DNA from: Antedon mediterranea
Taxonomy: Eukaryota > Animalia > Echinodermata
Assembly: GCF_964355755.1 (NCBI RefSeq)
Contig: NC_092673.1
Coordinates: 12,806,948-12,870,947, forward strand
Reading direction: 5' to 3'
Length of the DNA: 64,000 bases
Below are positions 18,837-64,000 of the stretch, one piece after another. Both the position numbers and the translations under genes were made by a program. The notes under the pieces are model-generated. The model saw only the letters and a list, made by a program, of their open reading frames with translations, made no database searches and had not been told where the DNA came from. Within the stretch, counting starts at the first letter, position 1; each line of letters opens with the position of its first letter.

Positions 18837-19240
18837 TTTGTTGATTCAGAAAACTGAACTGGTACATGAACATTGAAATGCTCGTACTTTTATAGATTGT
18901 GAGCCCTGCTCTGATTGGCTGGAGAACATAAAACTTTTAACATGCACAAACATAATTGTACACAATTGGTCAGCTAGCTTTTCTCATTAACGTAACGCCC
19001 ACCCACACAATAACAAACACCAATCCATCTTTATTTGTAAATGTGATAATTAGCTCTAAAATACATGAGTTAAAAAATATTTATAAATGTTTGTGCAGTT
19101 GATTTTAAAAAAAAACACATTTTAAAGATAAAAAGAACAATAAAGTATCCCATACTGCGCGGTACACATATGCTTTCGTTCAAACCCAGCAAAATACTAC
19201 ACACAACTAAATATAATATATATATATATATATAATTATA

Positions 19241-23525: not shown

Positions 23526-23740
23526 GTCCCTTTGTACAAATGGTTCAACACTGGGCCCGGCTCCTTGCGGTTTACGCGTGATATATCATGTTCCATCCAG
23601 GGACCAAAATACGCAGTTACTTTCCAGGCGAAGTTTACCGACGCGTACCTCGTGTACTTTGTATGTACGCTACACAGCAAAAGAGTACACACATTTACGA
23701 TTAACCCTCTCTGTACAGTGGGGTACACCTACAATAAATG
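23526..23740 (+). repeat. Dispersed copy of the repeat that is tandemly amplified at 62768-63870
   Basis: Shared blocks TCCCTTTGTAC, TTCCATCCAGGGACCAAAAT and TTTCCAGGCGAAGTTTACCGACG. Confidence 0.85.
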
Positions 23741-33145: not shown

Positions 33146-35274
33146 TAATAATACTGTTAATGTCTAAAAAATTAACAACGTGAACATAAGATCATAGAAC
33201 TATTTCAATTTGTGCGTTATTACATTTACTGTGAATTCATTTTTATTTCAACAATATTTTTTATGATTTTTTTCTGGTCCCAATACTATCTTTTTTAAAT
33301 AATTCAGCGAACTGATTCAATTCCCATACAGAATAATATCAATGCCATTAGAAAATACAAACAATATCTTCAAATTAAACAAAGAAACGGATATCTCCGA
33401 TCGCTGACAAATAATGATATTATTACAATTATTTGTTTATGTGTACCCAACAATCCGGGCGTTTTCCAAAAATCGCAGAAAAGCATCTATTTTAGGGAGG
33501 CTTTTACAATGTAACTCTGTTATTATTTATTATTTAAATTGTTATGGCTGTTTCGGCATTGTTATTTAGTTAGTTGTTTTAAATTCGTAATCATAAGAAA
33601 CACCGTCGGCATTGATGTAAAATGATCTCAAAATCGTTTTTTTAGTGAACTGCTAGTGTTAAAAGATAAGGGAAATTGTCAAAAGCTGGCGACCTGGTAC
33701 TCAGCAGTCCAAACACAAGAGAATTACTTGTCCAAAAAACTTCATTTTTGTACGAGGGACAAGAGTTATAATTTGTGATTCGTAATTTTAAAATTTAATT
33801 TGATTTAATGTATAGGAATTTTGATACGAGTAAATTCACCCGCTTGTTGTTTGTGAAGTTTTGACAGGCGTTTATTAAACTATAGGGAACATCTGTCTAT
33901 CCCCTTCGGCTTATTTGTTACAATTTAAAAACTCACAACTCAGTAAAGTGGTACAGTCCTACTGTACATGGTTAATTACGTACCACTGTCTTCAGGCAGA
34001 TGATTAAGAACATTAAACGTATTGATAATAAATAAAAGGGGATTGTATTGTGTGCAGGAAAACGGAAGCCAACAGAAATAATATAGCGCGGCGGCTATAC
34101 TCGTAACTTGTGAAGGTCCCTAATGATCAGCTTCGGCTGGATGGACCACCCTCGGTAAAGGTTGTTGAAATAAAAATAAAAAAATAACCTAGCCTACTTG
34201 TTATTTTCAAAACACATTACACGTCGGCGAGGTCCGATGGCATGCGTGACTAGCGGAACAAACCAAATATTCCTCGCAACAAATATCAAGCTAACAGACC
34301 CTTTTCCATCGGGCGAAATCAGTTTATTATCTCCCAGGTTTATGCGTACCACTTTGTGTCTTTGTTTTGTTTAAATTATTGTTAAATTCACAATTGCAAT
34401 AGGACTAAAAGGAATGTTTCACTAAAAATGTGCATCATTATAAATTTGGAAATCATTATGGCAAAAACGTAAACGGAATGAACTTGACTTAACTAGTGTT
34501 AATAAACTTTGAATGTTACCAATTAATTATTGTGTCATTATTGCTTGGCTCGTTTACGTCAAAATAAAGGAGCTTAAAAAACATGTGGTCTAGGTGTGGG
34601 CGTTTTTATTTGATTATGACACCTCTGCACATGCGCATCAATCAAAGCCCTTCACCCATGCTGCTGCTGCTAGCTAGCTCACGAAAAACAATAAACAGAC
34701 AGAAATTATGTTCACCGTACGTACGTAGGCCTTTTTGCCGTTAAAAACACATTGAGAAACAATAATTTACTATTGTAACATGTTTTATTGGTACAGTAAA
34801 TAATGTAACTTTTAAAAAAGGTAAATTGAATTAGCTTAATATTAATAAAGTAAGCCTAGGCCTATCAGTATTTATTTAATTAAAACTAGATTGACACAAT
34901 CATAGCCTAGCTAGGCCTTCCCTACGTTAGGAGACCGTACCGGGCAGCATTCGGACCGGTGATTCAAAGCATTTTCAGTGACAACGTGATGACTTTAAAA
35001 ATATGTTTTCAGGAAACCGGACTTTCGAAAAACCGGAAAATATATGCCCGCCCAAGGGTGTCCGGTATTGGGAGAGTTGACTGTATTAAGTTATTATTAT
35101 TGAGTGATTGATGATGAACATATTTTTTCGGCCTGATTTTTTTCAAAAATCGCATAGTCGGAGTATAAGTTGACCATCGATTTCGCAATTAAAATTTTCC
35201 CACAAAGTCTCGACCTATACTATGGAAAATACGGTAGATGAACTTGCACATGAAAAATGAAGAAACATTTTAAT

Positions 35275-36252
35275 TCATCCATGTATTTGGCCAAAATGGA
35301 AAGACCATTCTCTGACATCTTACACTTACAGTATATCTTATATTGCTACAAAACAAAAAAAAGCAAGTCTAGGCGAAACATACACAAATGACAAGACAGC
35401 AAAACAATTTATTAAACATATTGCAGGTGTTTATGAAGACAACCTGAAAGAGCAAATGCATGGACGTCACTATTTTAGTATACTGTCTGATGGTAGCACG
35501 GATAGAACTGAATCTGAGAAAGAAATCGTTTATCTGCGGTTTGTGAAGGATTTCTATCCAACCATTGTTTTTTTAAAACTGATTGACGTAAAGAATGCAA
35601 GGGCCGATGGAGTCTTAGCTGCAATAGATAAAGTGTTTCTTTCATATGGCTTCACATCGGATGAGTACAGAAAAAAACTTGTTGGGTTTGGAGCAGATGG
35701 TGCTGCAGTAAATCTTGGCAGAAATCGGAGTGTCAGCACACTACTAAAGGAAAGCTCGCTCTGGATGATTAGCATTCACTGCATGGCCCACAGATTGGAG
35801 TTGGCAATGAATGATATTTATACATATATGGACAAAGTCATTGACACTTTACCATCGATATATTATTTCTACCAGAACTCTGAAAAGCGTGTTCGAGAAG
35901 TTACAGAACTGGCTTCAATAATAGACGAGTACTTCAGTACACCAGGAAAAGCTAATGGCACACGGTGGGTGGCATACAAAACAAAAGTAAGATAGAGCTG
36001 GGAAATGTTTACTCTATACTTTGAACAATATGCAACAGATAATGCCAATAAAGCAGAAGACCGGGCGAAAGAAACTCACATCTCAAAGATCTTCATCATC
36101 TAAAAATGTGGCAAAGAATTTCTTTGGAGTATAAAGAGTTGCATGAATATAGTCATATTTTAAAGATTATTCATCTGACATCTGCCTACCCTCTCTTAAC
36201 ATCATGCTGTGAGAGAGGTTTCAGTTGCATGAAAAGAATAAAGAGTGATTGG
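35275..36252 (+). pseudogene. hAT (ZNF862-like) transposase remnant
   Basis: ILSDGSTD..EKEIVY, GFGADGAAVNLG, IHCMAHRLELA, NGTRWV and CCERGFSCMKRIKSDW. Stops and deletions present. Confidence 0.9.
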
Positions 36253-36254
36253 CA

Positions 36255-36412
36255 CACTTGATCAATTGATAAGATTGTACATGACAATGGAGGATGCTAT
36301 GGCGAATTTTATAAAAAATAATATTTTAAACAAAATTAAAGAAATTAGTTGGTATTCGGTATGCATTGATGAAAGCACCGATGTTTCTGTCACACAAAGT
36401 GTCATACAGTAC
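36255..36412 (+). pseudogene. Second short hAT fragment
   Basis: WYSVCIDESTDVSVTQ (first catalytic Asp motif). Confidence 0.65.
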
Positions 36413-36516
36413 AGGACAGAATTATTGCAAAAATCCCAACGCATTCAACATGTTGTCGTTGCGTTGCGATGGGCTTTCAACGTATAGTTGTTTATTCAAC
36501 GAAAGTCATTATCAGC

Positions 36517-39430
36517 ATGTCAAGTAAACAATGAGTTATTTCAACGCTAGCTACTGCTGCACTAGACTGACCGATTGCACGCTTAAACGATCAATAACAA
36601 CAACAGGCAAAATACCTACCGGCAGTCACAAGACATAAAGGACGAAAACAAACAGCTACGAGAACTACTGGACAAGAAAACAAACGAAATCGCACCAACC
36701 AACAGGTATCTGACATTATGGCAACACTTCAACAACAAACTACCATCAGACAACAACAGCCACAAACAGCACAAAACCAATAACCACCATTGAACAATGA
36801 CCCACATCAAATACCACAGGACTTACGACGACGACTACTTAGCTTTACTGACGACCGACTAAAGATGGCACGACTATTGACTGAATACTACTTTACCGAG
36901 GAAGAAAGACGCAATTGCAACACATCAGGACGAAACGGCGCTGCTCGACTCGACGTGACTAGACTGGACTACATTAAGACTGAAGTGTTTAACTTAGCTC
37001 CTGCCCCTGTTGCAGAAATGAATATCAGATGGAAAAAATGAGGCGCTCCAGCTCAAAAGCGGCGCTGTGTCGCAATAGACCAACCTATGTAATAACTATC
37101 ACAAAGTTCAATTTCAGCGAATTTGAAAAAATTTTCAATTTTATTTTTTTTACATAATATGAATTATTGATATGTGTTTTACCTACCCACGAAGTCTTAT
37201 TATGAACCAATAAATATAAATGTGTTAAATTCCGTAATCTTTGAAGTGTGTTTCTTTTAAAATATCTGAAAACAAAAATGTACAGTGCCCGAACGACAAT
37301 AAAATACTCCATTTTTCGCTAGAAGTATCATCGGCTTTCTCCTTCACAAACTCCGCCATGTTTGGTATCGGCAGAAAGCTTAGATTTTATTCTATCTAAC
37401 CCTGCCCTTGATTCGTTGGATAAATATTATTCTAACCAATGAAACATCGTCTTATTGCCGTCTTGTTGTTGCTATCTTGCCCAAACAAATCTGTAAAAAC
37501 TACGTTGCTGATTGGTCAATTTTCATTACATCATTACTGAGCATGCGCATTTGCTATGTTTACGCTTCGATCTGGCTACCGTGCCTGCGCGAAGTAGATC
37601 GAACAACACATGTTCCAGGAAAATTCTCACGACGAAAACATACTTTATTCATCTAGCGAGCGATAACTATTATTTATATTACTGATTTTTCGCAATACGT
37701 TCGTAATGTCTCGGAAGGACCCGCCTAAGGAAATTCTAGATGCGTTAAATGGTGCCAATGATTTTGGTTTTAATAATGAGGATGCTGAAGTAATCTCAAC
37801 AAACTCATGATGACCAACTAGCTAGTAGTAGGGCCCTAGTCTCTAGATAGGCCTCCTACCTCCTAGCCTAGGTCTACTACTTTTTGCTGACGATGACGAA
37901 GTGGAGAATGGCCATCCTAGGCCCGTTATCCAGAGGGTAGACGTCCTTAGATGTAATGAAATGCCTCTGTAAGTACATTTTATTTTTTCTTGTATGTAAA
38001 CTAAAATCCGTCTTGTCACATTAAATGTTAAATATCACTATGGTATGAAGAAATGATATAACTTTAACTTTATATTATTAATATTACTAGGCTAGGCCTA
38101 TGGTCTACTATACTAAATTCAATAAATTAGTTGAGGTAAAATAAAGTCAACTTAGGCCTAGGCTTAGGCTAATTAAAAATGTCAATAAGCAAATTTGATT
38201 TTTACAAATACATTCATGCTTGTTTGTTAAATTAAACTGACTGTATTTGTTTTTCTTTAGTTGTGACAAAACTGCAGATTGGTGTAACATTCAAAATGAT
38301 GAAGAACTGCAGAAAATCCGATCATTCAAACGCTGCAGATGTGGTAACGGACCCGACAAAAACGTTTGCCTAAAACAATTTGAGGAAGAATTTATGTATG
38401 GTGTATTACAAGGAGTATATTGATACGCCAGAACAAAGCCTACAGTTGCTCAAGAATGAAAACATACCTCCACTTATTTTACCTGAACCCATTCCATACC
38501 CTGGTTTATCATTTAAAAGGCAATCATACCTCTATGACTCGGTACGAGAGTTTTGTAAATTTGAGGCAAGGGATATTGTGTGTCCCGCTCCAAGCGAGTA
38601 GAGGTCCTGTCGCAATATATTGTTGTAGAGTTAAAAATATTGTTTAGCAATTTATTTATTTGCAATAAAATTAATATAGATTTTAAGTGACAGTTGCGGC
38701 AATTTTAACTGGTCAAATATTTTAATTTTTATTTGTTTTGTATTTATATTTTAATGTGCAATCTATTCACTTTTCTATTAAATGAAATTTTTTGATGATC
38801 ATCTCATACTGGTTTAACTTTTTTAACAGGGCAATAACTTTAATAGCAATTTATTAATATACTTTTATTTATACTTTTATTTTATACTTTCACTTAATAC
38901 AGTAATTCAAAAATGTGTATATAAATTTTCTCAGTGTCATGCTTTGTCGACTTTCATTTTGTTGGCATTCAGTTGAGAAAATACTGGTTTTGAAAATGAT
39001 AATGTTGAAATAAATTAATGATTTTAACAACTAATGTTCTTTATTGTATTGTTATTGTGTGTGCAAAATTTCTTTAGAATCAGACAATGGGAACTTTACT
39101 GTTGCTATGGTGTTTTGACTGTCCTTTTCCAAAACCAGCACAGTTTACGCTCTGTTGATTTCAAAGTCATTTTCCTCTAAAACCTGGATTTCCTTTTAGT
39201 GAAAGTGCTGTTTAGTTTTTGGCTTATAACTTTGGATAGGTTCAACTAAATTTAATGTATGATATATCATTGTAAAGCTTAATATGCAAAGAATATGAAT
39301 TTATAAAAAGATAGGAATTTAAAAATTTGATCTGGATGCTGATTTTGAGCTGGAGCGCCTCAAATGCCTTAAGTCAATTGATTCAGCACGTAGACAAATT
39401 AAATTTAAACAGAGACACCAACGAGAGTAG
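36517..39430 (+). pseudogene. BEN-domain gene (type B) interrupted by a Sola element
   Basis: RLKMARLLTEYYFTEEERRNCNTSGRNGAARLDVTRLDYIK...RWKK continues, once 37040-39365 is removed, as CLKSIDSARRQIKFKQRHQRE*. Confidence 0.82.
37040..39361 (+). mobile_element. Internally deleted Sola element
   Basis: 19-bp perfect TIR GAGGCGCTCCAGCTCAAAA with a 4-bp AAAT TSD (37036-37039, 39362-39365). Carries the transposase-like tail PGLSFKRQSYLYDSVREFC...DIVCPAP (38398-38601). Confidence 0.85.
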
Positions 39431-42900: not shown

Positions 42901-45094
42901 ATATATATATATTGATATAGATTGTATAATGGAATACATTTCAACTTAATGTAATTATTATAGAATTTTGTCCACGCCATTTTTTGCCACATCATATATG
43001 AACAAACGAGATGACTACTTCATTGCAAAATTAGGTTCCATTCATTCAAGCGTGCAAAGCCGCTAAACATTTTACACTCGTTGTGAAAGTTTGTCCATTT
43101 ATTGCATGCTGCCTTACCCAATCACACAAAAGACACCAAACACACAGTTTGTGACATGACGCACACAAACCTCGTGAAAAATCTCCTCCGTTTTATTTTA
43201 AAGAAGGAAGTATAAAACAATTGTACCGCCGTAGTACACAGAAGTTAGCCAGAGCGATAAAAGGATTGTCGCCGCGCAGTATCATCGCCATTTTTTATGC
43301 ATTCTAAATAAATGGTTATAGCTATTACTAATTAATGAACTATAAAATGTAATTAATCACAAAACAGTATTGAAAATAATATTAATCTAGGCCTAGCCTA
43401 GGCTTACTCTACTTTTTTTACTAACTAGGGTAGGCCTACACTCTAAACAGTAGTGGGCCTGTATATAAGATTTAAAAAGCTGAGTGATTACTAGCCTAGA
43501 CCTCTCTACATACAGTGACAAGATCAGAGGAGCCAAGGAACAGATATTATTAATTTATTTTTCTTAAAAATATATAAATTACTATTAGCACTGTACAAAC
43601 GTTATTTCAAAAATATACACCTGTTCTATTAATTTTGCAGAGGTTTTTTCTACAGTGGAGAACATATTCAACAACACAGGCTGTGGTGAAAGATGGAAGT
43701 CGAAAGTAGTAGGCTTTGGAGCAGATAGTGTCAATCTTGAAAAGAGAGGTGGAGTAATTGTACATCTCAGGGAGAGTGCAAGAGAACACATTATACCAAT
43801 GCACTGTATGCCTCACAGGCATTGAATTAAATCTTCATATATTAACAAATATTTTATTAAATCAATGATGACCTTTCATGCCCAAGCCTTCACTCACTCA
43901 TTTATTTATAATGCAATATTAATACTGTATCATTTTTTATTTTTTTATAAATTAACAAACTTGAGTTGGCATTACTTTCTGGGCTGAAAAAACAGCCAAG
44001 AGTGACGAAAGAGTAGGCCTATGACTTGCTGTACAGTACTTGCTGTACAGTACTTGGTGTACAGTACTTGGTGTGGAAGACCTATCATTTCAGCCCTAAA
44101 TCTAAAAGTGAGCTTAAACAAATTGGCAAAGAACTTGGATTAACTGTGGTGAATCAAGGAAATGTCCAGGGTACAAAATTGATTGCCCATGTTACAAGAT
44201 CATTCACATCCTTCATTATATAATGACAGATGCTGGCCAATATCGGGCAATCCATGTACATATGAGGCAATCCATGTACATATGGATCACCCGGCAGAAA
44301 CCCACACATCTGCTGACATTCAAGAGAGAGCAAGAAAGGTTAATAGCACCATACCTGTGATTTGTTGATTAAATTTTGATGCTTGTTTGACTTGTGTTGC
44401 TTTTTAAAGCATAAATGTTGTGAATTTTTAATTTATGAATATTTTCTTCTCATCTCAAATAGTTAAAAAAAGAAATACATTGAAGCTCTTGAGGGAGGAC
44501 AGCCCAAAGGTTGATAGGTATCTTCAAAAGTTCATAGATGCAGCAATTGACAAAGAAGAAGTACAGTTTCAGGTAATTAGTACTTATTAAATATTATTAA
44601 AATTAATTATAAATTCAGTGACATATATTTTAACAACTCTCTGCCAAGTTCTATGTTTACCAATGTTTTTTTAATTATACAGGGCATTAAACTGAAAGGT
44701 ACTACTGGATTAGAGATTGATGTGCAGTTAACTGCTTCGATTAAGCAGGCCTGTCAGTTTATTGTAAGGGACATGAGAGACAGGTTTAACAATGTTCTTA
44801 ATGATCCAGATGATGAAGTTGTAGGCAATGCCCCAAACCACAGAAAGCACTCTCAGCATTTAACATATTCAACCATGACAGCGAAATTACTTTAATATGG
44901 CCGTGCTGAAGTAGAATACCTTCTTCATCATTTTGAAAGGTAAAAGAACATTACATTATTGAATATTAGTTGAATTAATTTGTTGTTCTCTGAAGCTCTT
45001 TCTCTTAAAAAGCAGTAGCAGCAAGACAAAAAAAGTCCACTTTCTTCAGAAACTCCATCTTAATCCACATTTTTTTCCAATCATTTTATGTTAA

Positions 45095-45720: not shown

Positions 45721-45740
45721 TTAATAAATAATTATTTTAT

Positions 45741-47245
45741 CGTCGTGAGGTGGTTTCCCGATTAATCGTACGATCAAACGGTACTGGGTATGATCAACTA
45801 GCGTTCGTGTTCCCACCTAATCATCCATTCATAGAAGTACTGATGAAGATATCAATCTGTGGCGACAATAGAATGGACCCGAGACCTGGCTATCTTCGAC
45901 TTTTAAATAATAGAAAGTTTAGAAAAATGTTTTTGTTAAACTAGAAATGTACGTTGTATGTATATAGAAAAATGGTTGTAATTTTCAAAATTACGTTGTA
46001 TAAGTTGCGATGTGAAAAACTGTTATTTTATCGTTAGTTGTCGTGTACATAAAGCAAAAATATAAATAGCCTATAATAAAATAAAATAAAAATCGTTAGT
46101 AAAACTTTTAAAAAGAGTAAAGATATAAGGAAGAAAAGCAAAGAGATCATGGAGCGGCTGTACCAGAAAATACAACACTAAGTATTGTAAAGTTAAAAAC
46201 TAAAAATTTAGGCGATCTTGTCAAAGGTCAAGCGCCTTCAGCCTGCCACGTTTCGATATTCAATATTGAACTTGACCTGACGTGGTTCCACAATATCTTT
46301 ATATGAAAATGGTAGAATTGATAGAAAATAATAATTAATTCAAAATTTACCTAAAAATGGTTTTGAACTGAATCGATGAATGTCTTGTCGTCGTATGGTT
46401 TTGGTTTGGTTTAAAAGTATGTTCGATAAAGTGCGTGAGCGTATTAGAATGAAATGCTAGCGTATACAATGTGCGCGATGTCAAGTTGTGTACTGTGTGA
46501 TACATGTAAGATTATAAGTGTATCGTACATTGTAGTAGAGCGAAAATAACATAGGTATAAAGGTAGGATATAAATAAGTAGTATAGGATGTATAGAAAAG
46601 GGAATGGGTTGTTAGTTACAGGAAAGATTTTGAATGTCGTGAGGTGGTTTCCCGATTAATCGTACGATCAAACGGTACTGGGTATGATCAACTAGCGTTC
46701 GTGTCAAGTTCAAGGTCAAGTTCAATATTGAATATCGAAACGTGGCAGGCTGAAGGCGCTTGACCTTTGACAAGATCGCCTAATTTTTTAGTTTTAACTT
46801 TACAATACTTAGTGTTGTATATTCTGGTACAGCCGCTCCATGATCTCTTTGCTTTTCTTCCTTATATCTTTTTTAAGTTATACTAACAATTTTTATTTTA
46901 TTTTATTTTATTTTATTATATTTATGTTTTTGCTTTATGTACACGACAACTAACGATCAAATAACAGTTTTTCACATCGCAACTTATACAACGTAATTTT
47001 GAAAACTACAACCATTTTTCTATATACATACAACGTACATTTCTAGTCTAACAAAAAATTTTCTAAACTTTCTATTATTTAAAAGTCGAAGATAGCCAGG
47101 TCTCGGGTCCATTCTATTGTCGCCACAGATTGATATCTTCATCAGTACTTCTATGAATGGATGATTAGGTGGGAACACGAACGCTAGTTGATCATACCCA
47201 GTACCGTTTGATCGTACGATTAATCGGGAAACTACCATACGACAC
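45741..47245. mobile_element. Foldback element with ~540-bp inverted arms
   Basis: 45741-46279 is the near-exact reverse complement of about 46713-47245. ORFs 45750+ and 47238- translate almost identically. Confidence 0.85.
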
Positions 47246-48387
47246 TAGAGTCTTTTGATCCAACAACCATAGCTGAAAACTGGTTATCAGAAGGGCAGCG
47301 AAGCAGGAGGCCTATGTATAGAAAATTGCCTGATGGATTGTACTACAGTAGTTCACTGAATGAATGATCCCTGGCAAAACATTATATTACTACTGTCATA
47401 TCTTACATTGTATTCTTTAATCATTTAATAACAAAATAAAGTTATTGGTTGGTTGCCTCTGATGGTAGTGTTACTGTTGTACATGCAGTTTGCTTTAGTG
47501 TGTTTTGGGGGTTTTTTTGTACGTGGGGTGCGGTTAGGGGAAGGGTGTCGATGAACGAAGTTGATCAAGTGCTACTAACAAAATTTGTGGTGCTACCAAA
47601 AATTATTATGAGCCATCATAAAAATGTTATAGTGCTACCAAGTGAAAAAGTTAATTTTCAGCTCTGTTATGAGTTATTGTTTTGATGAAACAATTTGATG
47701 AATTTTCCCTTGACGTAAGGCCTACCTGTACATCCCTTATTTATTTATTATAGGTCACACACACACGTGTAACAAATGAGATGATGACATTACAACGAAT
47801 ATCTAACTAAAAATTTGCGACTTAAGGTTCCCCATTATTGCAAATTTATGTTGAGATGTTTGACATCAAAGTAATATACTGTAGCTTTAATAAGTGTCAA
47901 AAATGTGATTATGTAACTCATATTCTTATAAATAAAAAACACAAATAACAAAACAAAATAAACAAAACCGAATTGATTAAAAATGGAACTAAAAGGTTAG
48001 AAAACTGTATAGTAGTAATACTAATAGTAAGCAATGTCAAACCAAAAAATATATATAATAATCAATAGAATAACAGGATGCATTCATATTCAACGAATAA
48101 TCACTTTAATTTGAAAACATAGAACTTCATAAAAACAAACAAAATAATAACAGGAATAATGCTATCGACGAAAGGAAATAATGCAGAAATTGCGTCCCAT
48201 ACATCTTTCGAGACAAGTAGGGGGTTACCCCGGTGTACTAGATCACACACAACAGCCACTGTCACAAACTCATCATATACACTAGGCCCTCTGGAAGAAC
48301 AGTCTTTGACTGAAGAGGCTACCCAGTATAATAAATAAATAACTCAAACACTCAACGATTAGCTCGGCAGAAACGTGCTGCTGAATA

Positions 48388-51300
48388 AAGGGTCTTTCAC
48401 ACCTGTTCCGGCACAGTTCCGGTCCAGCGAATCGAACATCAATGTTTTCATGCGGCTATGCCTAATCAAAATGCGCCTAGCCTAGGCCTGTAACGCGAAA
48501 TTTGGTCCGGGGCCAAAACTGGTCCGGTCGGATCGATTTTGGCGTTGAAACAGCCGCTAAAACAGGTCCGGCTAGGCCAAAACCGGCCTTCAAAATCGCT
48601 TATTTATCCTTAAAAATGTCATAAGAAGCGCCTAGAAAAAGTCCAAATGGTTGAAGTAAACTATGCTTTGAGTAAATATACTAAATATTACCGTAAAATC
48701 AAAAAGAAATTATCGAAACGGAGAGATTAAAAATGTGCAAGAATAAATCGGCGCTCGGTTTGGAATCTTCAAATATTCCATTGTAAAATTCGTAGGATAA
48801 AGTAATATCCCCCTCTGATTTTTTCTTTTTTTTTGAGGAGGGGGGTGGGGGGGTGTTAGCATAGTAAAAAAGAACTTTTCATTCATTGTATTCATATATT
48901 TTGATTAAATAAGGTTTGATTATATATTCTCACATATTTCCTCATTTTATCGTTTCAAATTAATACATTTTCAGTATATTACCGGGCGGTTTAGAATTTG
49001 TTTTTAATAATATTGTATAACTTTAACTTGCACTGAAGGGTTTAAAAAAGAGGGTTCAACATCAACGTTTTGTGATCGTATTTTAACGTACTGCATCTGT
49101 TTTAAAATGAAATGTCAGTAAAATATATAAAATGATCACCTATTTATTCTTCAAAGTGAGGAATTATATTTTAGTTATTCTTTGTCTGCATACATATTAC
49201 AAAATGTTGATTTCATAAATGCTCATGGTTTCAGCCGATACGATAGTAAATTAATTTGACACGAATTTAGAATAGCATGATATAAAACACTTTTGTTGTT
49301 TTTTTAAATTGATGAGAACTACTTGGCCTGCCTTTCCGCCAAAACAAAAAAGAACTTAAAATGTTTTCACTTATATTTATAAAAGAAAAAACAAACGGTT
49401 ATATTAAACCACAACTCCATTGGCTGTTGGTACAGTTTTTGGTCAAAGCTCCTTATATCTTGGCTCTGTGTGCATGTGAGACGCATCATACCCAAAACTT
49501 ATATTATTTTTTATTTGACAAAACAGATTTGTGTATTTATAGCACGTCCTTTTAATGAGGGAAGGTATGAAAGTTGTTTTCTCTAAAATGTTCGCACAAG
49601 TTGAAGATATTTGGCTCAATTTCACAATGTTGTACATCTTACCGATTGTCGGTAAATTCGCTTACAAAAATGACAGCATGTAAATCCAAAGCTCGCAGTG
49701 TAGCTTCATCTGCGTAATTGTCCACAAGAGCAGCATTTAAGGTTTCTTCAGTGATGTATAGTCCCAATATTTGCGGGCGAGATACTTGCGTATTGGATGG
49801 TATGGTCTGAGGATGTACTTTCGTTCCGATGTGTCAAGTAACCCCTCCTCTTGTTTTTCAACGTCCAAAACTGGCTCAACATGAGCACAAACAGTTGAAA
49901 GATACACATTTCTTTCCGAAATTTCAGCATCACTATTTGTTAATGGGCAATACTCCCAGCCATTGAAAATGTGGTTGATTCTTTCTTGTGCCATATTTGT
50001 AGACAATAGTTTTCGTCATTGTTGCACATGCTTAAATTTCCAACTCGGAGCCCCATGTTCCATCCTTAGACATAGCTGTATCACTTGTGTATTTTTCGAA
50101 TGATTTGCTGTCGCAGTTTTCAAAGATACGTCTGTTTTGGACATAAACTCTAAAATATGGTCCCTCATCACAATCATGGTGACTTTAGACACCAACAAGA
50201 ACGTAACTAAGCGCTCTAAAGCTGAGGCAGGTCCCGTCTCCGCGCATCCTGGCTGTTTTCGTGGGTTTTGCTGCCTTGTTCATTTCTCTTTGAAAAAGAG
50301 CATCTACTGGGTTTGGTGAACTAGCCTCACCACAGAATATCACATCATCTAATTGTTGATCAAGATGCTTGTCCTGTCTAACGTTTTGAGAGGGTCCTTC
50401 TTCCTTGTATTTCTCAGCATTGTGGTGTTCCATTGATTCATTTGCAGCTTTTTCGGACAGATTATTTGACAATTTAAAAGGCAGGTTGCTTCCATTGACG
50501 ATTAGTGGCGAACGGATGGTGAAGTACTGCCGGACGTTTGAGTGTTGGGGCAATCATCTTTTGATGAAGAGGTTGGTGAAAAGATATATGGCTTCAGAGG
50601 TATCCCGTTAACACGTTTGATAACACTGTCGTCATCTAGCCCTATCAGAGAATATGATCCCTTTCCCATTTATTTTCCAGTTTTCCTCCCTTCCTTTTTT
50701 TCCTTCGCAGATCTTTCATCAATACGTACATATGTTCCGCATTTGAATTCAGTTGGTTGTGCATGCCTTCTGTCATAATTGATTTTCTGTCTTTTCTGGG
50801 CCGTTTCGATGTTTTTTTGCGCAGTATTTTTTGAAACACGCAAATGGCCTAAATCATGTTCTAAAATTGATCAAAACGTAATTTTAAGCATTTTAAAATG
50901 TTAATGCGTGATTTCGCACGCAAGGCCCTGGTTAAGCGTACCATTTTTAATATGTTTACCTTAGTTGATGTATAGTGAATTTTATTGTTTTAAATTACAG
51001 AGTATTTACTGTATAAAAATATAAAACATAATACAGGTAACATATTATTACATTGTAACAATCAAATACAGTAGGCCTATTTAGGACTCATACATTTTGA
51101 ATTAAATATATGAATTGTGTTTTGCAAGATTGAAATAAACCTATAGGCTAGTCAAATAATTCATTGTATTGTAGCCTACGTTCAGCTCTATGTTATAACA
51201 TTTTGAGTTGAGCGACAATGGGTGTATAGACTTAGTCGCTCGCATCCATCCCATCCACGTTAGATGTGCCACAGCTTTTTCAGCTGCGGTCCTGGGTTGC

Positions 51301-52347
51301 GGTGTAAAGATTTTTTTTTTAATTACAAATATTACCAGTAGGCCTAAATAATGATATTAGAGCGTAATAATTGGATTCTAAAAAGTTCATATTTTGGATA
51401 ATTTTGAGAAAATGGAAAATTAACCCTCTTATTTTTACACCAACCAGTGATATTATTAGAGCGTTTCCGTAATAAGTAATTGAATTCTTAAAAGTCCATA
51501 ATTTGGGGTGATAAAAAAAATCTCTGTACTAAATAATTGTTTTACCTTCTTTTTTTTCGCTAAGAAGACTATTACGAAACTCGTGTTCGTCGTACAGCTA
51601 AATTCGTGAATGTGGGAACCGGTCATTCCACTGTGGTGTCGTTTGTCAATTTTTTATTTTTATTAATGTTAGTATTGCTACCCATATCGATTGTTATTAT
51701 CGTCGTTGTTTTATACTATTAATAGAGAGGCCCTTGGTGGCCACTTGCACCCCAAAATGTGGACTGGAAAAAAAATAAGGCGGGTGTAATTTCTTACAAA
51801 GGCACAAAAAAAAGATACTGATAGCAGTAATGACAACAACCTAAAATAATAATACTAATAATAATTAACGTTCTATATTTTATTATTAATCATTATTGAA
51901 TACGCCCAAGACGTATTCAGTTTGTACATAATATCTAAGATCTAAGACATAATATAAAATTACTAGAGGGCGCTATTAGTTTTAAACAAACTGAACAATA
52001 GAATATCCCAAAATCCGATTAGAGTTTCTTTAATTAGTGTTTCGATAATTTCTTTTCGTTTGTACGGTAATATTTAGTATATTTACTTTAAGCATAGTTT
52101 ACTTTAACCATTTGAACTGTTTGCAGGCTTCTTAACACATTTTAAAGAATAAATAAGCGATTTTAAAGGCCGGACCAGTTTTGGCCTAGCCGGACCTGTT
52201 TTAGCGGCTGTTCAACGCCAAAATTGATCCGACCGGACCAGTTTTGGCGACCAAAATCGATCCGGCCGGATCAATTTTGGCGTGACAGGCCTAGCAATAT
52301 TCGATTGGATTTTCCAGCACCGGACCGGAACCGTGCCGGAACAGGTG
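48388..52347. mobile_element. Palindromic MITE split by the Ginger insertion
   Basis: Left arm AAGGGTCTTTCACACCTGTTCCGGCAC at 48388; right arm ...GTGCCGGAACAGGTG resumes at 52300-52347. Confidence 0.75.
48489..52287 (-). mobile_element. Ginger1-like element, internally deleted (integrase C-terminus plus OTU domain)
   Basis: TGT...ACA termini, ~235-bp imperfect TIRs and a GGCC 4-bp TSD. The minus strand reads NIETAQKRQKINYDRRH..F..G..VLMKDLRRKKRKGGKLENKW (GPY/F region), then RMRGDGTC.FRALSY...GTWGSELEI...HVEPV (OTU), all frameshifted. Confidence 0.82.
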
Positions 52348-52349
52348 TA

Positions 52350-52532
52350 AAGGGTCTTTCACACCTGTTCCGGCATTGTTCCGGTCCGGCGAATCAAACA
52401 TCAATGTTTCGTTTTCACGCGGCTATGCGCCAATCGATATGTGCGTAGCCGCGTGAAAACGAAACATTGGCGTTTGATTGGATTTTCCGGCGCCTGACCG
52501 GAACCGTGCCGGAACAGGTGTGAAAGACCCTT
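52350..52532. mobile_element. Intact palindromic MITE, same family as 48388
   Basis: TA|AAGGGTCTTTCACACCTGTTCCGGCA ... TGCCGGAACAGGTGTGAAAGACCCTT|TA. Confidence 0.88.
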
Positions 52533-53537
52533 TAAAGATAGGAATATTCATTACCGACAGAGGGCGCTGTGTATAAAGGGAACACAAATTGTATATATGA
52601 TTTATGTGTCGGATATTTCGGATATGACGTCGTGAATACTTGCCAAACAATATCAAATACCTTTTTACCGTGAAAAAAAATATTTGGCGTATTTTACGAC
52701 GGTAACAAGATTTTAACTAGATTTTACGTACGGAAAACATTGAAGATTAAGTTTTTGGATAGCAGATCGGTTTTCCTTGGATTTTGAAATATAAAGGTAA
52801 GTTTGTTAGATTATTATATTCCTTAGCGTAAAAAAGTGAGAGTTTGCGAAAAGTGACTTTATTTACAATTGTCTAGGCTAGGCCATTATAGAGGGCGCAC
52901 TACATTTCGCCTAGGCTGATTAGTGGATTTTCCAAGGGAAGAAAATAGACAGAGAGGGGTTGCTTGGCCTAGACTATAAGAAAATAATTGATTGTCTTAT
53001 TTTTGTACAGTTTTAAGTTTATTTATTTTCGTTTGTATGTTTATTTTAGTTTTCATGTTTTTTTATGTTTATTTTAGTTTTCATGTTTTTTATGTTATTT
53101 ATTTACATTAATTACATTATTAACTGTAAAATATGTATGTAATTTTTTTTTTTTTTTTTGTATTACAGTAAAACTACTATTACTTTACTGAATATGTATG
53201 TGCCTATTTCTATTTATTTTATTTTGTTGATTATTGTAATTAATATGTAATTGTCTTATATAAATGACGACAAACGTGGTGATGATGGTGAAGGCATTGG
53301 AATAGCATATTTTACTACTATAAATATTATATAAGTACCTGTAAATATATTTTACTTTTTAATAAATCATCTGTCTTTAGGCTACTCTACTTTAAAATAA
53401 TTAGGTTATAGTGGATATTTAATTTATATATTGTGAACAAAAAAAGGCATGTTTAACAGACCCACAAGGAGATGTACTATACTCCAAACATACTGTACTT
53501 AAAAAACATATTCCTACCATAGATTCAAGGGAGCAAA

Positions 53538-56500
53538 ATGGAGGATTCTGATTTCATTGGTCCATATTCAGCAGATCTAGGGATAACAGTATCAAAATTA
53601 AAAGAAGATAATTTTACACTTGATGGTGCAAAATTAACTAATGGTGCTGTATTAGAAATGCGGGACATGGTAATCAAATTAAAAAAACCTATGTCAGTTC
53701 TTTCCTGTTGGATAATTCATATTTTAAATCAGAATGTCTCACAAATAAATCCTAAGTCTATAATTTCGAAAGTTGATACTCTTAAGCTAACTAGGCAAGG
53801 TTTAAAGAAGAGCAAAGCTGCCAGTGTCCAACAAAGGCTAGCGACTTTCTTATCTCAAGATTTTGTGATTCCTGCTCTTAAGAATCCAGTGAAGAAGGCT
53901 GTAAAAAGACGGATGGTTGATGCACCTATCATATCCTGCAAAGACTGTGAAACCAAAGAATCTGTAAACAAACAACTAGTAGAGGAGATAAAGGAGCTTA
54001 AGAAGAACATTGGTAAGTTAGAGAAGACGCCAAAAATATTGGTTGTAAAGAGAAGTGGAGTCAAAAGGTTAAACCAAACAATCAGAAGGAAAAACATCGT
54101 TATTAAGTCATTGAAAAGCAAGGTTAAGAAAATGAAAAAAGAAGTTGCTCAGAAGAAACCTGAAGAACAAGTCTTGAGAGTAAAGTCAAAGCTTTTAAAA
54201 ATCAAGAAACGGAACCGCAATCTGAATAAGAAATTGAAGAAGACCATCGAAAAGTTAGAGGTAAATCAAAAAAAAGGTAAAGATTTTACGGAAAGGCAAC
54301 ATGCAAAATTCATCAAACTGCAAGAAGAAAACCGTCTGTTAAATGAAGAAATTTCAGAGCTGAAATTAAATTGCAAAAGTGTAATTCAAACCAAAAAAGA
54401 TGGGAAAACCTTCAATTGGAATGTTCGAGAAGCTATTTATTTCTGCTTAGAACATGAGGTACCAACCACCAATATTTCTGCTGTTTTGCGGTATGCGGTG
54501 GAAAAGCTAGCAAATGCGGAGATAGAAGTTTTGCCAGACTCTGTCACTTGTTTGCGGATGTTGCGTGAAATGCGTGAATTATCCAGAATTCAAGTGAGGT
54601 TTTAGAAATGGCAACAGACACCACCATAAAATATGACGGAACCACGAAAAAGAGAAATCATTTTCTGGAAGTACAAATTGCTGATCAATCGACAACATAC
54701 ACCACAGGGATATCGTTATTGCCATCAGGTACAGCTAATGCCAATGTTGAAGGAATTCTACAAACAGTACAAGATATAGGAGCTGCACGACAAGCGACTC
54801 ATGGATCAAATTCATCACAATCAATCCTAGATTCAATTTCCAACTCTATGACAGACCGTTGCATTGTGAACAAAGTGGTCAATGCTAAGTTGAAGGAAGC
54901 AATGACAGAAGGCAACCGACAAATGAATGAATTCTTTTGTGCTATGCACCCATTAGACACGTTTGCAAAATCAAATGATAAGGTAATTTCTAAGTGGGAA
55001 AAGGATAGCTTGCCAACAGAATCCAATCAGATGTCATTCCGAAGACGAAGTTTAAGCGGGGCACAAAGTTTTATTGGTGCTGTATGTAGGTTGTGCTATA
55101 ATGACGGTTCTGGTCTACCATCTGAGATGTGTACCTTTCTGCGGAGTAAGAATATTCGTCTAACTAAGATTTTGTCTCCAGAGATCGGTAGCCGCTTCCA
55201 CATATTATATCGTAATGCTGGAGCTGTTCGCTTACTAACTCCATATATTCAAGAGTTCTTTACGAAGGTATGGCCACCAACCAATGATCTGCATCGAGCA
55301 GTGTTGTCTGACAGCAAGATTCAGCAATACAGTACAGGCTGTTGAGCACTTGGATTGATTGGCAAATACATTTCGGGTCCATGGATGTCCTTTGTTGAGA
55401 GAGACCAGCATATCCTTGAAATGAACATCCCTTTCATGCAGGCTGTAAATAAGCTGGAAGAGTGGAAGATTGATCCATCTCCTCTTGTAAATGGCACTGA
55501 ATCAAAATCAATATTTGAAACAGTGCCTTTACATAAGGATGCGGTATTTGCTTGCCTGACAACATCACATAAAGATGATGTTCAAGTAAAGGATTTGTTG
55601 GTCCTTCTCATTGATGTCATCATAGACGTATGTAAAAGGCAACTTGAAGACCAATTACCAGGCGGAAGTTTCTTCAGTCCATCGGAAGAACTAAAAGTTC
55701 AAGCAAAATCGTGTGTCAACAACAACATCAGTGGCGAAAGAATCTTTGGCCTCTTAGACCACTATATCAAAAGGGCTCCAAATGCTACTTTAAGCTATGC
55801 AGAGAGTAAGGTCACATACAAGACAAACATGACATCTGCATGGTTGAGCACTAAGTCAGAAGATGAGAAGGAGGGACTTCTTTCTACTGCTCGCATGCTG
55901 AGTATTCGTAGCAGGAAGATTGATGCCACACGACAACTGTCTGTGCTTAATGAAAAGAAGTTGCACCTACAGAAAAAGAAAGAAGAACTGGTTGAGAAAG
56001 ATGATCGTAGGCTACTTAGGGAAAATCTACTTTGTGATCTAATGAAATATGGAGGATTGTGGCAAGATCCAAGCAAAATGGACAACCAACTGAGTGAGCT
56101 GTCATCAAAGAAACAACAAGTACTTGCTCTGAAGAACCAACTTAACATCCGAAGAAAAATTGTTGAACAGAAGGCAGATCCATCACTTTTTTGTTTCTCT
56201 TCAAAAGGTAAGCCACATTCGCTGGAAGAACTAAAAGGAAATTTACACATATTAATGCAAGCTAACATTTCTGAGGAAGATGAAATTACAAAAATAATCA
56301 TTCAACCACAAGCATTGTTGGGAAGAAAAATAAACCATCTTTGGTCAGAATGTGATGAAGAAGAAACAGTTGATAGATGGTATGAAGGTACTGTTAGCAG
56401 TTTTGAAATGTCAACCAGAGAGTTCAAAGTCATATACCAAGACCCGATTAGCAAGAAGCAAATGGATGATGTCTATTTGGAATTAGATGAAATTGTGGCA

Positions 56501-56539
56501 GATATGAAGAGTGGCGACCTCTTAGTAGAATGGGATTAG
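53538..56539 (+). pseudogene. ~1000-codon CxxH-type DDE transposase (hAT/P/Kolobok-like fold, family unresolved) with an N-terminal Lys-rich coiled coil and a C-terminal Spindlin-like Tudor domain
   Basis: Three consecutive ORFs joined by one frameshift (about 54597) and one in-frame TGA (55343-55345). Motifs YDGTTK, SMTDR, FFCAMH, GSRFHIL and NNISGERIFG. Confidence 0.8.
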
Positions 56540-57278
56540 TCGTGAGTGACATATTTACTGTAACCACGACTTTCTTATGTTGAATTTTTTTTTATTTTAT
56601 GCTAACAGTAACTACAGACTAATTTATATAGTCACAAAAACTAAACTTTTTATACTGTAATGTATAATTGGCACAGTATAGTATGATATTGATTTGTTTT
56701 GATTTGACTTAACTGTACTTGGTTGTACTGTACAGTATATCCATATAATATAAATCCATGTTGTGTTGCTTTCAAATTTTGTTGTTTTTTTTGTTGTAAT
56801 TCTGTATTCTGTACTGTAACAACTTTAACTTGTACCTTAAACTATTGATTTTTTAGTATTTTTCCAAGTTTCTGTTAAAATTATGATAAGTACCAGTCAT
56901 ACATGTTATTTTTGTCAACTTGTTTCTGTTCAAATTTGATGAACATGTTGTTATTGTTTTGAGCAATACTATATAGTGCAAAATTAGCATGTTGTTTACA
57001 GTAGTTGCAATTTTAATATTATAAAGCAATCATGACAACTAATTAAACAAATTTAAAATTTTGTATTGTAGCCTACCATATTCAAAATGATTGTTTTTCA
57101 TTCTATTCTTTTTACGTTGTATATATAATATAATATTGCTAAAATTCTTTTTTTTTTCCTTTTTTTAAATAGGATGGATCTGGTCGTTTCTGAAGAACAC
57201 TGTTGACAATGTTGAAAAAAAAAAACTGGAAAAAAAAACCTGAAAAAAAAAACCTGAAAAAAAAAACTCAAACCAAAC

Positions 57279-57350
57279 GGCTCTTTTCAGAGCCACCCAA
57301 ACTCAAACCAAACGGCTCTTTTCAGAGCCACCCAGTGTTCATAAGAGATT
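57279..57350 (+). terminator. Two tandem histone-type 3' stem-loops plus HDE-like element
   Basis: CCAAAC-GGCTCT-TTTC-AGAGCC-ACCCA at 57279-57294 and 57314-57329 (35-bp duplication), with AAGAGATT at 57343-57350. Confidence 0.9.
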
Positions 57351-57666
57351 TTTTAGCCTGTAAAAAAAAATAATTTTATATAAAATTTATTATTTAAACT
57401 TCATTGTAGTGAGTTAATTTCCGAATTATCACATATATTGTTTTAGGCTGACATTAGAATTATAATCATACATAGATAGATACAATGTACCCCTTTGACC
57501 TCTAACTAAAATAGCTATATACCATAAGCAGAGTCCATGATACTATGTTGTTACTTTGGGAGTACGGAACCTGAACTTTTGTTATAGTGATTAGGTTCAC
57601 TTTTAGGTTCCTGCCTACTCCCTTAGTTTCTGTGTTTTGTTTGTTTGTAACTGGTTTTTGGCAATA

Positions 57667-57700
<34 letters not shown>

Positions 57701-60608: not shown

Positions 60609-62428
60609 CATAGTTGCCATTTCTGGCATTATTATGCTTTTTGGCATTATTTAGAGGCCCACGGCATCTGGCATAATGCCGCGGCATTATTTAGCCGTTT
60701 TTAGCATAATCTGGCATAATTTTGTGTTTTTTGAACAACCAATAATAATAATAATAATAATATACCACAGAACAAAAATAAAATATTTTGTTTAATCATG
60801 CAATTTAATACATATCACCTTACACAATATCATATCGTACAAAACAGATCTGTTCGGGTTTTCCGTACAATAGTTCTTCCATCCTTTTGTTTCGGACTTA
60901 AATAGACTCTTCGGATAGGAAGGCTGCTCGAAAACTACCGTGTGTGCGATATAGGCAGCACAACAAATCCGGAAGAGGCTAGCTATTGGCTAGTCTGGGT
61001 TCCAGACGGAGTTTTGTCTTAATATTAGTTAAAAGATAAATATTTTGGCACATATGGCGTTTCATACGTATACTACTTGATTTTGGATACAAAACAAACA
61101 AATAAATAAAAAAAAAAGATAATACAGACTTGGGGCAAGTCTAGCTATTGGCCAATTATGTTGCTCTATTTCAGAGACCATGCAGGTTATTGGATCCCCA
61201 GATATAGAGACAATTGAACGAAAACATTATGAAAGGGGTTTTGTTGTTTCAGTTCATAATTATAAGTGGCCGCACCCCTACCCCAACCCTTGAAATGGCA
61301 ATTTGCAGTAACTATTAGAAGCTCTAATTTTAAAAAGAATTTCTTCAAGCAGAATTTTTTTTCCATATTTCAAATTATGTTCCATTTGCATCGTCGTAGC
61401 AACCCTATTTTTCCAAATGTTCTTCACCTCTCAGCCCCAGTAGTGACCATGTGGGCGAGGTAATTTTTATTTAAAATTAAGTGCCATTTCCGCCCATCGA
61501 GCAGCTCTATTTTTCCATTTTTTTTTTACCTCAGCCCCAACCATGGTGGGGCTGAGGTCATGGAGACACTTAATATATTTTTATTTCCTATTTTAAATTA
61601 TAATTGCCATTTTCAAAACTATGATGGGCTAAGATCCTGGAGGTACTAATAAATATATTTTTATTTCATATTTGAAATTAAGTGCCATTTCCGCCCATTG
61701 AGCAGCTCTATTTTCCCAAATTGTCTTACCTCAGCACTAGCCATGGTGGAGCTGAGGTCCTGGAGACACTTAATATATATTTTGATTTCCTATTTTCAAT
61801 GATAATTGCCATTTTCGAACTATGGTGGGCTAAGATCCTGGAGACACTAATAAATATATTATTATTTCATATTTTAAATTAAGTGGCATTTCCGGCCATC
61901 AGCATTTTTCAAAATTTTCTTATCAACCATGGTGGGGCTGATCGTCCTGGAGACACTTAATATATATATTTATTTCCTATTTTAAATTATAATTGCAATT
62001 TTCTAATTATGGTGGGCTAAGATCCTTTCATATTTGAAATTAAGTGCAAAGGTCGAGCAGCTCTCATATTTCAGCTCAAAAATTCTAAATTTCCATGGCT
62101 GTAACAGGTTTTTTTTGGAGGGTGGGGGGGGGGGGAGAAGGGTTCGTGGGTTCGTGTTTGTGTCATTTGCAATTACCATTTCACCCCAGATATTTTTAGA
62201 ATTATTAGTTATTACTCACAAAACTAAAAATACAATTTTTGAACGACATAGGGATACAATTTAGGCCCTATTTTGTGTCAGTTGGGGTTTTACAAACGTT
62301 TATTAGACATACAACCGTTGGTGGCGCTGTTTAGGGCCACATTTTGGGGATCTGGCATTATTTTTCCCAATCTGGCATTATTTGAGACAGGATACGGCAT
62401 AATTTAAATTTTATCGCTGGCAACGCTG
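60609..62428. mobile_element. Non-autonomous hAT element
   Basis: Termini CATAGTTGCCA / TGGCAACGCTG, an 8-bp TSD CATGGAAA (60601-60608, 62429-62436), and GGCATTA/GGCATAA subterminal repeats. Confidence 0.85.
61420..62065. repeat. ~200-bp tandem repeat, about 3 copies, with a hairpin
   Basis: AATTAAGTG.CATTTCCG.CCAT recurs at about 61476, 61677 and 61877. Internal hairpin ACCTCAGCCCCA...TGGGGCTGAGGT. Confidence 0.85.
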
Positions 62429-62767: not shown

Positions 62768-63760
62768 GGGAACACGGGTACTTTTTGTCGGGGAATATAA
62801 TATACAGTAAAAAACGTTCGCGTTCACTTCATATAGCTTCATCGCCTAGAAAACCACGACGTTCCATTGACCGTGAGAGTACGTCAGAGGGCTAAGACTG
62901 TGAGAGTACGTCAAAGGGCTATTATGCACTTTTATGCATTCATTATTGCCAGAGAGCTAACTACTAAACAATAGCTAGTACTCACTTGTTTGGCGGTATC
63001 CCTTTGTACGAATCGTTCACCATTGGGTCGAGACGCGTGATATCATGTTCCATCCAGGGACCAAAATGTGTAATGTAGTTATTTTCCCGGCGAAGTTTAC
63101 CGACGGTTACCGAAGGGAACACGGGTACTTTTTGTCGGGGAATATAATATACAGTAAACAACGTTCGAGTTCACTTGGTAGCTTCAGCGCCTAGAAAACC
63201 GCGACGTTTCATTGACCGTGAGAGTACGTCAGAGTGCTATTATGCAATGTATATGCATTCATTATTGCCAGCGATCTAACTTACTACTAAACATTAGCTA
63301 GGTACGCACTTGTCTGGCGGTATCCCTTTGTACGAATCGTTCAACGTTGGGTCGAGACGCGTGATATCAAGTTCCATCCAGGGACCAAAATGTGTAATGT
63401 AGTTATTTTCCAGGCGAAGTTTACCGACGGTTACCGAAGTGAACACGGGTACTTTTTGTCGGGGAATATAATATACAGTAAAAAGCGTTCGCGTTCACTT
63501 CGTAGCTTCAGCGCCTAGAAAACCGCGACGTTTCATTGACCGTGAGAGTACGTCAGAGTGATATTATGCAATGTATATGCATTCATTATTGCCAGCGATC
63601 TAACTTACTACTACTAAACAATAGCTAGGTACGCACTTGTCTGGCGGTATCCCTTTGTACGAATCGTTCAACGTTGGGTTGAGACGCGTGATATCAAGTT
63701 CCATCCAGGGACCAAAATGTGTAATGTAGTTATTTTCCAGGCGAAGTTTACCGACGGTTA
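62768..63760. repeat. ~325-345-bp tandem repeat, 3 copies
   Basis: GAACACGGGTACTTTTTGTCGGGGAATATAATATACAGTA recurs at about 62770, 63117 and 63441. Confidence 0.93.
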
Positions 63761-64000
63761 CGTCGTGTACTGTGTCGACGTACGCCACACTACCGCAAAA
63801 ACGAATTATGTTAATTGTTCGTAAGTTGACCAATTTTTTAATTTACAAGTAACCTTCTGTACCGTGGGGCACCTAAAATAAATATTTCATCCATTACTAA
63901 ACAAAAAAACATGCCATTTTCGCTTAGCCAACATCTTATTATAGCTAAGTTATTAAAGTTTCAATGTCCTGTATGTCATGAATTTCTCACTACTCGGAAG

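Follow-up and report, generated by a model that had tools for sequence, protein, structure and literature searches.

Histone-type stem-loops behind a broken hAT-fold transposase gene of Antedon mediterranea, and a candidate spliced stem-loop message

Histone 3'-end signals on mobile-element-type genes

A 64,000-nt stretch of the Antedon mediterranea genome (Echinodermata; assembly GCF_964355755.1, contig NC_092673.1, positions 12,806,948 to 12,870,947 of the forward strand; hereafter the window) contains a broken hAT-fold transposase gene followed by two copies of the histone messenger RNA (mRNA) stem-loop, the second with a histone-type downstream element behind it. Judged from sequence, it is one of three mobile-element-type genes in the window with a histone-type end signal. 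Because two further genes of this kind nearby carry the same signal, it is likely that such elements adopted the pathway that serves histone messages. The explanation we favour, with about even confidence, is that mobile-element genes in this DNA took over 3'-end signals from histone genes, and that the message of the hAT-fold gene was a spliced stem-loop message. The feature appears to be real and unusual, in that the sequence would work like a histone mRNA end on a non-histone gene; the combination of splicing with a stem-loop is plausible.

The stem-loops and the predicted 3' end

The 16-nt histone stem-loop GGCTCTTTTCAGAGCC was matched exactly at three places in the window, two behind the hAT-fold gene (57279-57294 and 57314-57329) and one at 16135 behind a Tc1-like gene. 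A mean of 0.18 matches was expected even when up to three mismatches were allowed, and none of 100 shuffles gave three. The pair behind the hAT-fold gene belongs to a perfect tandem duplication, 35 nt per copy (57264-57333), which bears out the duplicated stem-loops described in an earlier note on this DNA. The Rfam Histone3 model (RF00032) scored 42.3 bits on the second duplicate (57309-57354) and 38 bits on the hairpin of the Tc1-like gene (16130-16174). The first duplicate scored 29.8 bits, under the cut-off of 34, because its downstream part is missing; the downstream element is present for the second duplicate alone. The hairpins are surrounded by a C/A-rich 5' flank and an ACCCA 3' flank, and the second duplicate and the Tc1-like hairpin have a purine-rich element 12-13 nt downstream.

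In histone processing, cleavage falls after the ACCCA 3' of the stem. Since AAGAGA stands only behind the second hairpin, the message 3' end is predicted at 57334; the earlier note had allowed for about 57299 or 57334, and only the latter is served by an element, at 57343. The first hairpin probably arose later, as a duplicate made by slippage. The AAGAGA at 57343 pairs with four of the five bases of the general U7 box UCUUU as given in PMC5054213, which is not the host's own U7, and against that same general box the elements of the Tc1-like gene and of a BEN-like gene pair at five of five bases.

For comparison, seven genuine histone genes of animals were taken from prokaryote bins in which they occur as contaminants. 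Their hairpins lie 21-43 nt past the stop and 12-16 nt ahead of AAGAG, and the window's hairpin flanks and element spacing agree with them. These control genes were fetched with a pattern demanding AAGAG within 8-20 nt, so the 12-16 nt range is bounded by the pattern and the spacing control is partly circular. The window has the 16-nt stem-loop with conserved flanks, and its purine-rich element falls in the expected range of about 12-17 nt past the stem (13 nt for the second copy, 12 nt for the Tc1-like gene). A histone stem-loop usually lies about 20-45 nt past the stop; the Tc1-like gene agrees with this (29 nt), the BEN-like gene comes near it (18 nt), and the hAT-fold gene falls outside.

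The hairpins as the relic of a histone gene were rejected, as no histone coding remnant was found within the window (best tblastn E 0.44). Apart from A/T runs, no target-site duplication flanking the hairpin block was found.

The search for the stem-loop with its element returned 38 stretches in prokaryote genomes and none in viral contigs. Twenty-four of the 38 were inspected (the other 14 overlap the same two contigs): five had animal histone genes, and 19 had no histone open reading frame (ORF) before the hairpin. Clusters of animal histone genes, evidently contamination from the host, were seen in the prokaryote bins L028-L049, L037-L040, L058 and L062 (labelled Bdellovibrionales and Chromatiales). 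In a viral contig whose genes resemble those of giant viruses, an exact histone stem-loop follows a short ORF and lacks a clear downstream element (L001, 5001-5018, minus strand).

A candidate intron in the 3' untranslated region

The earlier note had read a donor GTGAGT at 56542, 2 nt past the stop, and a long polypyrimidine tract ending in AG at 57172. Both are present, the stop being TAG 56537-56539. The acceptor has 84-89% pyrimidines and 101 nt free of AG, and is the sole one within 900 nt of the stop that combines at least 75% pyrimidines with a clear AG-free zone. It resembles the host acceptors in a neighbouring DUF7869 gene and sits 106 nt ahead of the first hairpin, and T content drops from 46% to 18% across it. 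By post hoc calculation, a GTRAGT donor would turn up no further than 10 nt from a chosen point with a probability of 0.004, and such an acceptor within 150 nt with a probability of 0.015. Splicing would place the first hairpin 108 nt from the stop, close to the figure of about 110 nt put forward earlier, and the second at 143 nt; unspliced, the distances are 739 and 774 nt. Four 14-nt A-rich repeats (57213-57268) lie in the candidate terminal exon. On these motifs an intron in the 3' untranslated region (UTR) is plausible.

In the 3' flank of one relative (L015, 3975-4543), an acceptor is followed by an exon that is possibly spliced onto the transposase and that, from its motif, resembles an SGNH-hydrolase domain.

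Nonsense-mediated decay (NMD) follows a 50-55 nt rule. Exon junction complexes (EJCs) are deposited about 24 nt upstream of a junction (PMC7407380); the EJC of the 3' junction would sit inside the coding region, and an intact ancestor would therefore escape EJC-dependent NMD. The escape that had been proposed for an intron so near the stop would thus apply to that ancestor alone, because translation of the present broken copy stops at 54603-54605, about 1.9 kb ahead of the proposed junction.

A likely intron in the 5' UTR

The motifs reported earlier for the 5' UTR, a donor AAG/GTAAGT with its GT at 52797 and an acceptor AG ending at 53522, are in place, the latter 15 nt ahead of the ATG at 53538. 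The perfect donor AG/GTAAGT (AGGTAAGT) occurs three times in 128 kb. The acceptor is modest: its pyrimidine content is 47% over 19 nt and 75% over 12 nt, and 51 nt before it are free of AG. It falls outside the eight most pyrimidine-rich of the 20 YAG sites in intron 1, the strongest of which is a rival at 53168 after a long T run.

Relatives of the transposase were taken from 23 metagenome loci, 15 of which had a locatable N-terminus; one (L024) had no ATG, leaving 14 to be assessed. Twelve of the 14 had an acceptor 8-20 nt ahead of the ATG, versus 58 of 1,560 control ATGs (3.7%), a threshold chosen after the window's own value had been seen. As nine of the 12 positives form one related group, the count becomes three of five independent groups. 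These data support an acceptor just ahead of the ATG as a trait of the family, and a 5' UTR intron is likely to be present, with its exact 3' boundary in this copy less sure. The interpretation in the earlier note stands in part. The stop it used is the natural one, the 5' acceptor recurs in the family, no other strong 3' acceptor lies within 900 nt of the stop, and the second hairpin has its downstream element, as does that of the Tc1-like transposase; 53522 is outranked by 53168, and the donor at 56542 matches the consensus at just six of nine positions.

Coding region and identity of the transposase

Three ORFs (53538-54605, 54578-55342 and 55346-56539) tile positions 6-996 of a 998-position transposase profile to which 60 of 73 full-length relatives contributed, so that the coding region is complete and free of introns. 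It is interrupted by a frameshift near 54594-54596 and by an in-frame TGA at 55343-55345; with these lesions in its sequence, the copy is dead. The closest relative, 63% identical, is another Antedon mediterranea protein (XP_071959561.1, here P0003), and the next best-scoring matches are at about 29-33%. The C-terminus of P0003 coincides with TAG 56537-56539, which is therefore the natural stop. Sixty-two of 152 relatives examined had the terminal motif, and 38 of these end 3-5 residues past it. On both grounds the possibility that this TAG is a lesion before a hidden coding exon was rejected.

The D, D, CxxH and E residues are conserved. The predicted model of P0003 (mean predicted local distance difference test score 85) matched the Hermes hAT transposase best (E 5.7e-7, template-modelling score 0.23-0.34) and then the P element (E 5e-3). 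The hAT features of a DDE triad with C/DxxH and a Hermes-like fold are thus present, the fold being judged on the relative P0003 and with low template-modelling scores. The N-terminus is a long coiled-coil, and P0003 has a weak Tudor match (E 0.035). No Pfam transposase family matched the protein. It belongs to a large family, with 1,211 clusters at E <= 1e-30, that has no name in the tools used. Pattern matches to transposase relatives numbered 12 in viral contigs and seven in prokaryote genomes, and none was confirmed.

Membership of the Dada superfamily was rejected. Dada elements are described as inserting in small RNA genes, with CCCC and CCHC zinc fingers and coding introns (PMC3706591); the window had no U1, U6 or tRNA-type Rfam match and the coding region is intronless, zinc fingers not being scored separately. 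An inverted match of 12-13 nt between 52348 and 58937 looks to be at chance level. In one relative (L010), an inverted repeat of about 360 nt, imperfect in sequence, runs off the end of the locus.

The second family copy in the window lies at about 8400-9800 on the plus strand; it is heavily decayed and has AATAAA-like sites behind it.

Two further genes with histone-type ends

The Tc1-like gene carries the HTH (helix-turn-helix) and DDE_3 domains of Tc1/mariner transposases by Pfam. It ends SGY-stop, and seven of the 17 relatives with the relevant segment end in TGY; from this alignment, SGY-stop is the natural end of the gene. Its hairpin, 29 nt past that stop, is placed within the 21-43 nt of the seven histone genes and close to a metazoan median of 30 nt. 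A search for TA-flanked terminal inverted repeats on either side of the hairpin yielded only AT-rich 14-mers.

Converging on the Tc1-like gene is the BEN-like gene. Its first exon is 34% identical (E 6e-11) to an exon at 30113-30424 that lies upstream of a BEN-domain exon (32292-32900). The BEN identity was unconfirmed by Pfam, atlas or homolog search, and since Pfam BEN gave no match, the label is an inferred one. A donor GTAAGT at 18442 follows the first coding exon, so this may be a second spliced gene with a histone-type end; a Myb/SANT ORF lies on the opposite strand inside the presumed intron. More BEN or BEN-like genes are found on the plus strand (30146-32903, with a 15-nt coding repeat exon at 30918-31390; 12790-13450; 36784-37038), none with a stem-loop.

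All three histone-type signals are sense-oriented behind an ORF, and they share no sequence beyond the signal core. A single carrier resembling a short interspersed nuclear element was rejected as the source of the three, their flanks not being shared.

Table 1. Features of the three genes with histone-type end signals (positions within the window; nt, nucleotides)
Feature	Position	Strand	Basis and remarks
Broken Tc1-like transposase gene (HTH + DDE_3), no intron apparent	15120-16105	+	Pfam, box scan; three CCAAT boxes and TATA upstream
Exact histone stem-loop and AAGAGA	16135-16168	+	Rfam 38 bits; 29 nt past Tc1-like stop; element 12 nt past stem
Decayed stem-loop block	16841-16883	-	3' arm lost; 5' flank, 5' arm and AAAAGAGA element retained; 18 nt past likely stop of BEN-like gene
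Broken BEN-like gene, converging on Tc1-like gene	16887-18837	-	Exon similarity; three CCAAT boxes and TATA upstream
TATA-like box, candidate promoter	52572-52578	+	Box scan; function inferred
Probable 5' UTR intron, 726 nt, T-rich	52797-53522	+	Donor motif (perfect), relatives' acceptors; 3' boundary uncertain
Broken hAT-fold DDE transposase coding sequence, intronless, with CxxH motif and C-terminal Tudor-like domain	53538-56539	+	Profile tiling, fold of P0003
Candidate 3' UTR intron, 631 nt, 46% T	56542-57172	+	Donor and acceptor motifs; starts 2 nt past stop
Candidate terminal exon, A/C-rich	57173-57334	+	Composition; end after ACCCA predicted from histone processing rules
Histone stem-loop, copy 1	57279-57294	+	Exact match, fold; without own downstream element
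Histone stem-loop, copy 2	57314-57329	+	Rfam RF00032 42.3 bits; fold
Histone-downstream-element-like AAGAGA	57343-57348	+	13 nt past stem of copy 2
First AATAAA sites past stop, possible alternative poly(A) end	57663-57699 (57663, 57694)	+	Motif scan

Evidence against a spliced stem-loop message and alternative explanations

Several results weigh against a spliced stem-loop message of the transposase. No stem-loop was found at any of the 23 loci of relatives (Rfam gave no match on 20 of them), including the 10 with at least 800 nt past the stop, nine of which have AATAAA within 1 kb; nor was one found after the decayed family copy at about 8400-9800. Around the present copy no element ends were found in the form of a terminal repeat with a duplication (short terminal inverted repeats, 8-bp target-site duplication), and no CCAAT box lies within 300 nt of the donor at 52797, unlike in the Tc1-like and BEN-like genes. 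The donor at 56542 has six of nine consensus positions, where host donors from the neighbouring DUF7869 gene score 6-8 of 9. None of the 10 relatives checked had a GTRAGT donor near the stop among the best-scoring sites, and only one of 10 (L017) passed the acceptor filter, its strong acceptor lying 326 nt past the stop with AATAAA 117 nt further on. Even the spliced distances of 108-143 nt, like the unspliced 739 nt, are well outside the usual spacing of 21-43 nt; the median given in a survey of 2,281 metazoans is 30 nt (preprint 10.64898/2026.10.14.759114). AATAAA is available at 57663 and 57694, both inside an AAT microsatellite. In mammals, according to PMC3661734 (citing Pandey 1990), an intron prevents stem-loop processing and shifts the message to polyadenylation.

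The relatives are just 23-42% identical to the window's transposase, and their lack of a stem-loop therefore speaks to the family as a whole, close copies not being addressed. The hairpin as a family-wide trait was rejected, and because none of these 23 distant relatives carries one, the stem-loop end is, on this comparison, lineage- or copy-specific.

It is unlikely, in our view, that the hairpin block is unrelated to the transposase message, as either the captured 3' end of a histone gene (a repair patch) or the last exon of a lost gene. Such an origin would suit the absence of the stem-loop from all 23 relatives and from the second family copy, its distance from the stop, 739 nt as long as the unproven intron is left out, and a window dense with nested insertions. 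The block is, however, accompanied by no histone coding relic and no flanking duplication, two more ORF-linked sense signals occur within the 64 kb at histone-like spacing, and the donor 2 nt past the stop is joined by the sole strong acceptor 106 nt before the hairpin.

Two other explanations concern how the message ended. That a spliced message was polyadenylated at 57663-57694, with the hairpins inside its 3' UTR, or switched between ends like H2A.X, seems rather unlikely: the downstream element is still correctly spaced, a feature that a polyadenylated message could do without, and both AATAAA sites (57663 and 57694) are part of the microsatellite. What recommends it are those sites themselves, the AATAAA within 1 kb in nine of the ten long-flank relatives, the preference of intron-containing messages for polyadenylation in PMC3661734, and the existence of histone messages with two end types (PMC9756948). 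We consider it quite unlikely that the hairpin ended a message without a 3' UTR intron, which would have had an unspliced 790-nt UTR in which the splice-like motifs arose by chance in T-rich DNA. The donor's six of nine positions would be in keeping with this, as would the absence of AATAAA between stop and hairpin, an absence that is not unexpected by chance. The joint chance of the donor and acceptor at these positions is nevertheless small, T falls from 46% to 18% at the acceptor, and the conserved 5' intron would keep the message spliced anyway.

Other elements in the window

A palindromic 187-nt miniature inverted-repeat transposable element (52348-52534) lies directly upstream of the candidate transposase promoter and adjoins, with related ends, an element of about 4 kb (48386-52351). 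The larger element has long imperfect inverted repeats (48501-48719 and 52039-52255, 87%) and a broken minus-strand ORF inside, which, by its motifs, is presumably OTU-protease-like; it had no Pfam match. A non-coding-looking element at 45735-47244 has inverted arms of about 550 nt (94-99%) and an extra internal copy of its terminal 70 nt. The intron-rich DUF7869 gene (1200-6590, plus strand) has a C-terminal Tudor-like exon and is followed by a 56-nt tandem array (6627-7298), with no stem-loop. Other broken transposase-like genes were seen at 25059-27527, 35261-36484 and 43589-44900, one of them a DUF4371 hAT-type ORF. Tandem repeats of about 324 nt (62770-63775) and about 200 nt (61359-62050) lie on the plus strand, and the former shares short segments with 23569-23662.

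A possible mechanism and its implications

In the explanation we prefer, with captured histone ends and a spliced stem-loop message, transcription would start near 52600-52750. Removal of intron 1 would take out upstream ATGs, and without intron 2 the 3' UTR would measure about 165 nt in place of about 790 nt. SLBP would bind the hairpin and U7 would pair at 57343, so that the message of an intact element, spliced in both UTRs, would be cut at 57334 by U7/SLBP. As described in PMC12775136, stem-loop function, or regulated decay, requires a hairpin near the stop, which is why the 3' intron would matter. As a likely advantage, the transposase would be made in S phase, when a cut-and-paste element can gain copies, and cleared afterwards, which would favour jumps from replicated to unreplicated DNA. 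The Ac element is reported to transpose during replication in this direction (PMC4270019). A bolder version is that, in this animal lineage, at least two unrelated DNA transposon superfamilies independently wired their transposase messages into SLBP/U7 for S-phase timing, the hAT-like one on a spliced message whose 3' UTR intron pulls the hairpin towards the stop; this we hold to be possible and rather doubtful.

If true, cut-and-paste elements would gain a ready-made S-phase timer. Their transposase messages would be largely missed by RNA sequencing of poly(A)-selected RNA, and the activity of such elements would therefore be underestimated. The finding would break both the rule that stem-loop ends belong to histone messages only and the rule that they are unspliced, and the spliced case would offer a natural test, outside mammals, of whether splicing and U7 processing exclude each other.

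Comparison with known systems

The protein groups with hAT (Hermes), within the C/DxxH group of hAT, P, MuDR, Kolobok and Dada, by its conserved residues and by the match of the P0003 fold to Hermes. It differs in having no match to a Pfam transposase family and in its coiled-coil N-terminus and Tudor-like C-terminus. Around this copy, no short terminal inverted repeats or 8-bp duplication were found.

No transposase genes with histone stem-loops were found in the literature searched, which did not extend to subscription journals and Repbase Reports. Histone messages are described in PMC4604434 and PMC3661734 as unspliced and as the sole cellular mRNAs whose end is this hairpin rather than poly(A); the SLBP-bound RNAs of human cells in PMC4604434 were histone messages only. 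The window shares with the end of metazoan replication-dependent histone mRNAs (RF00032, histone downstream element, SLBP, U7) the exact hairpin, both flanks and the element 12-13 nt downstream. It differs in its ORFs, which are transposases and a BEN-like protein, and in that the hAT-fold gene probably has introns and, when spliced, a hairpin 108-143 nt from the stop. A replication-dependent histone gene encodes a histone and is intronless, whereas no histone similarity was found in the window and a 5' UTR intron is likely.

The dual-ended or spliced histone transcripts H2A.X, HIST1H2BD and HIST1H2BC are alike in that poly(A) signals accompany a stem-loop within one locus and that splicing occurs in the 3' part. 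In those genes, as described in PMC9756948, splicing removes the stem-loop and leads to a poly(A) end, whereas here splicing would bring the stem-loop closer.

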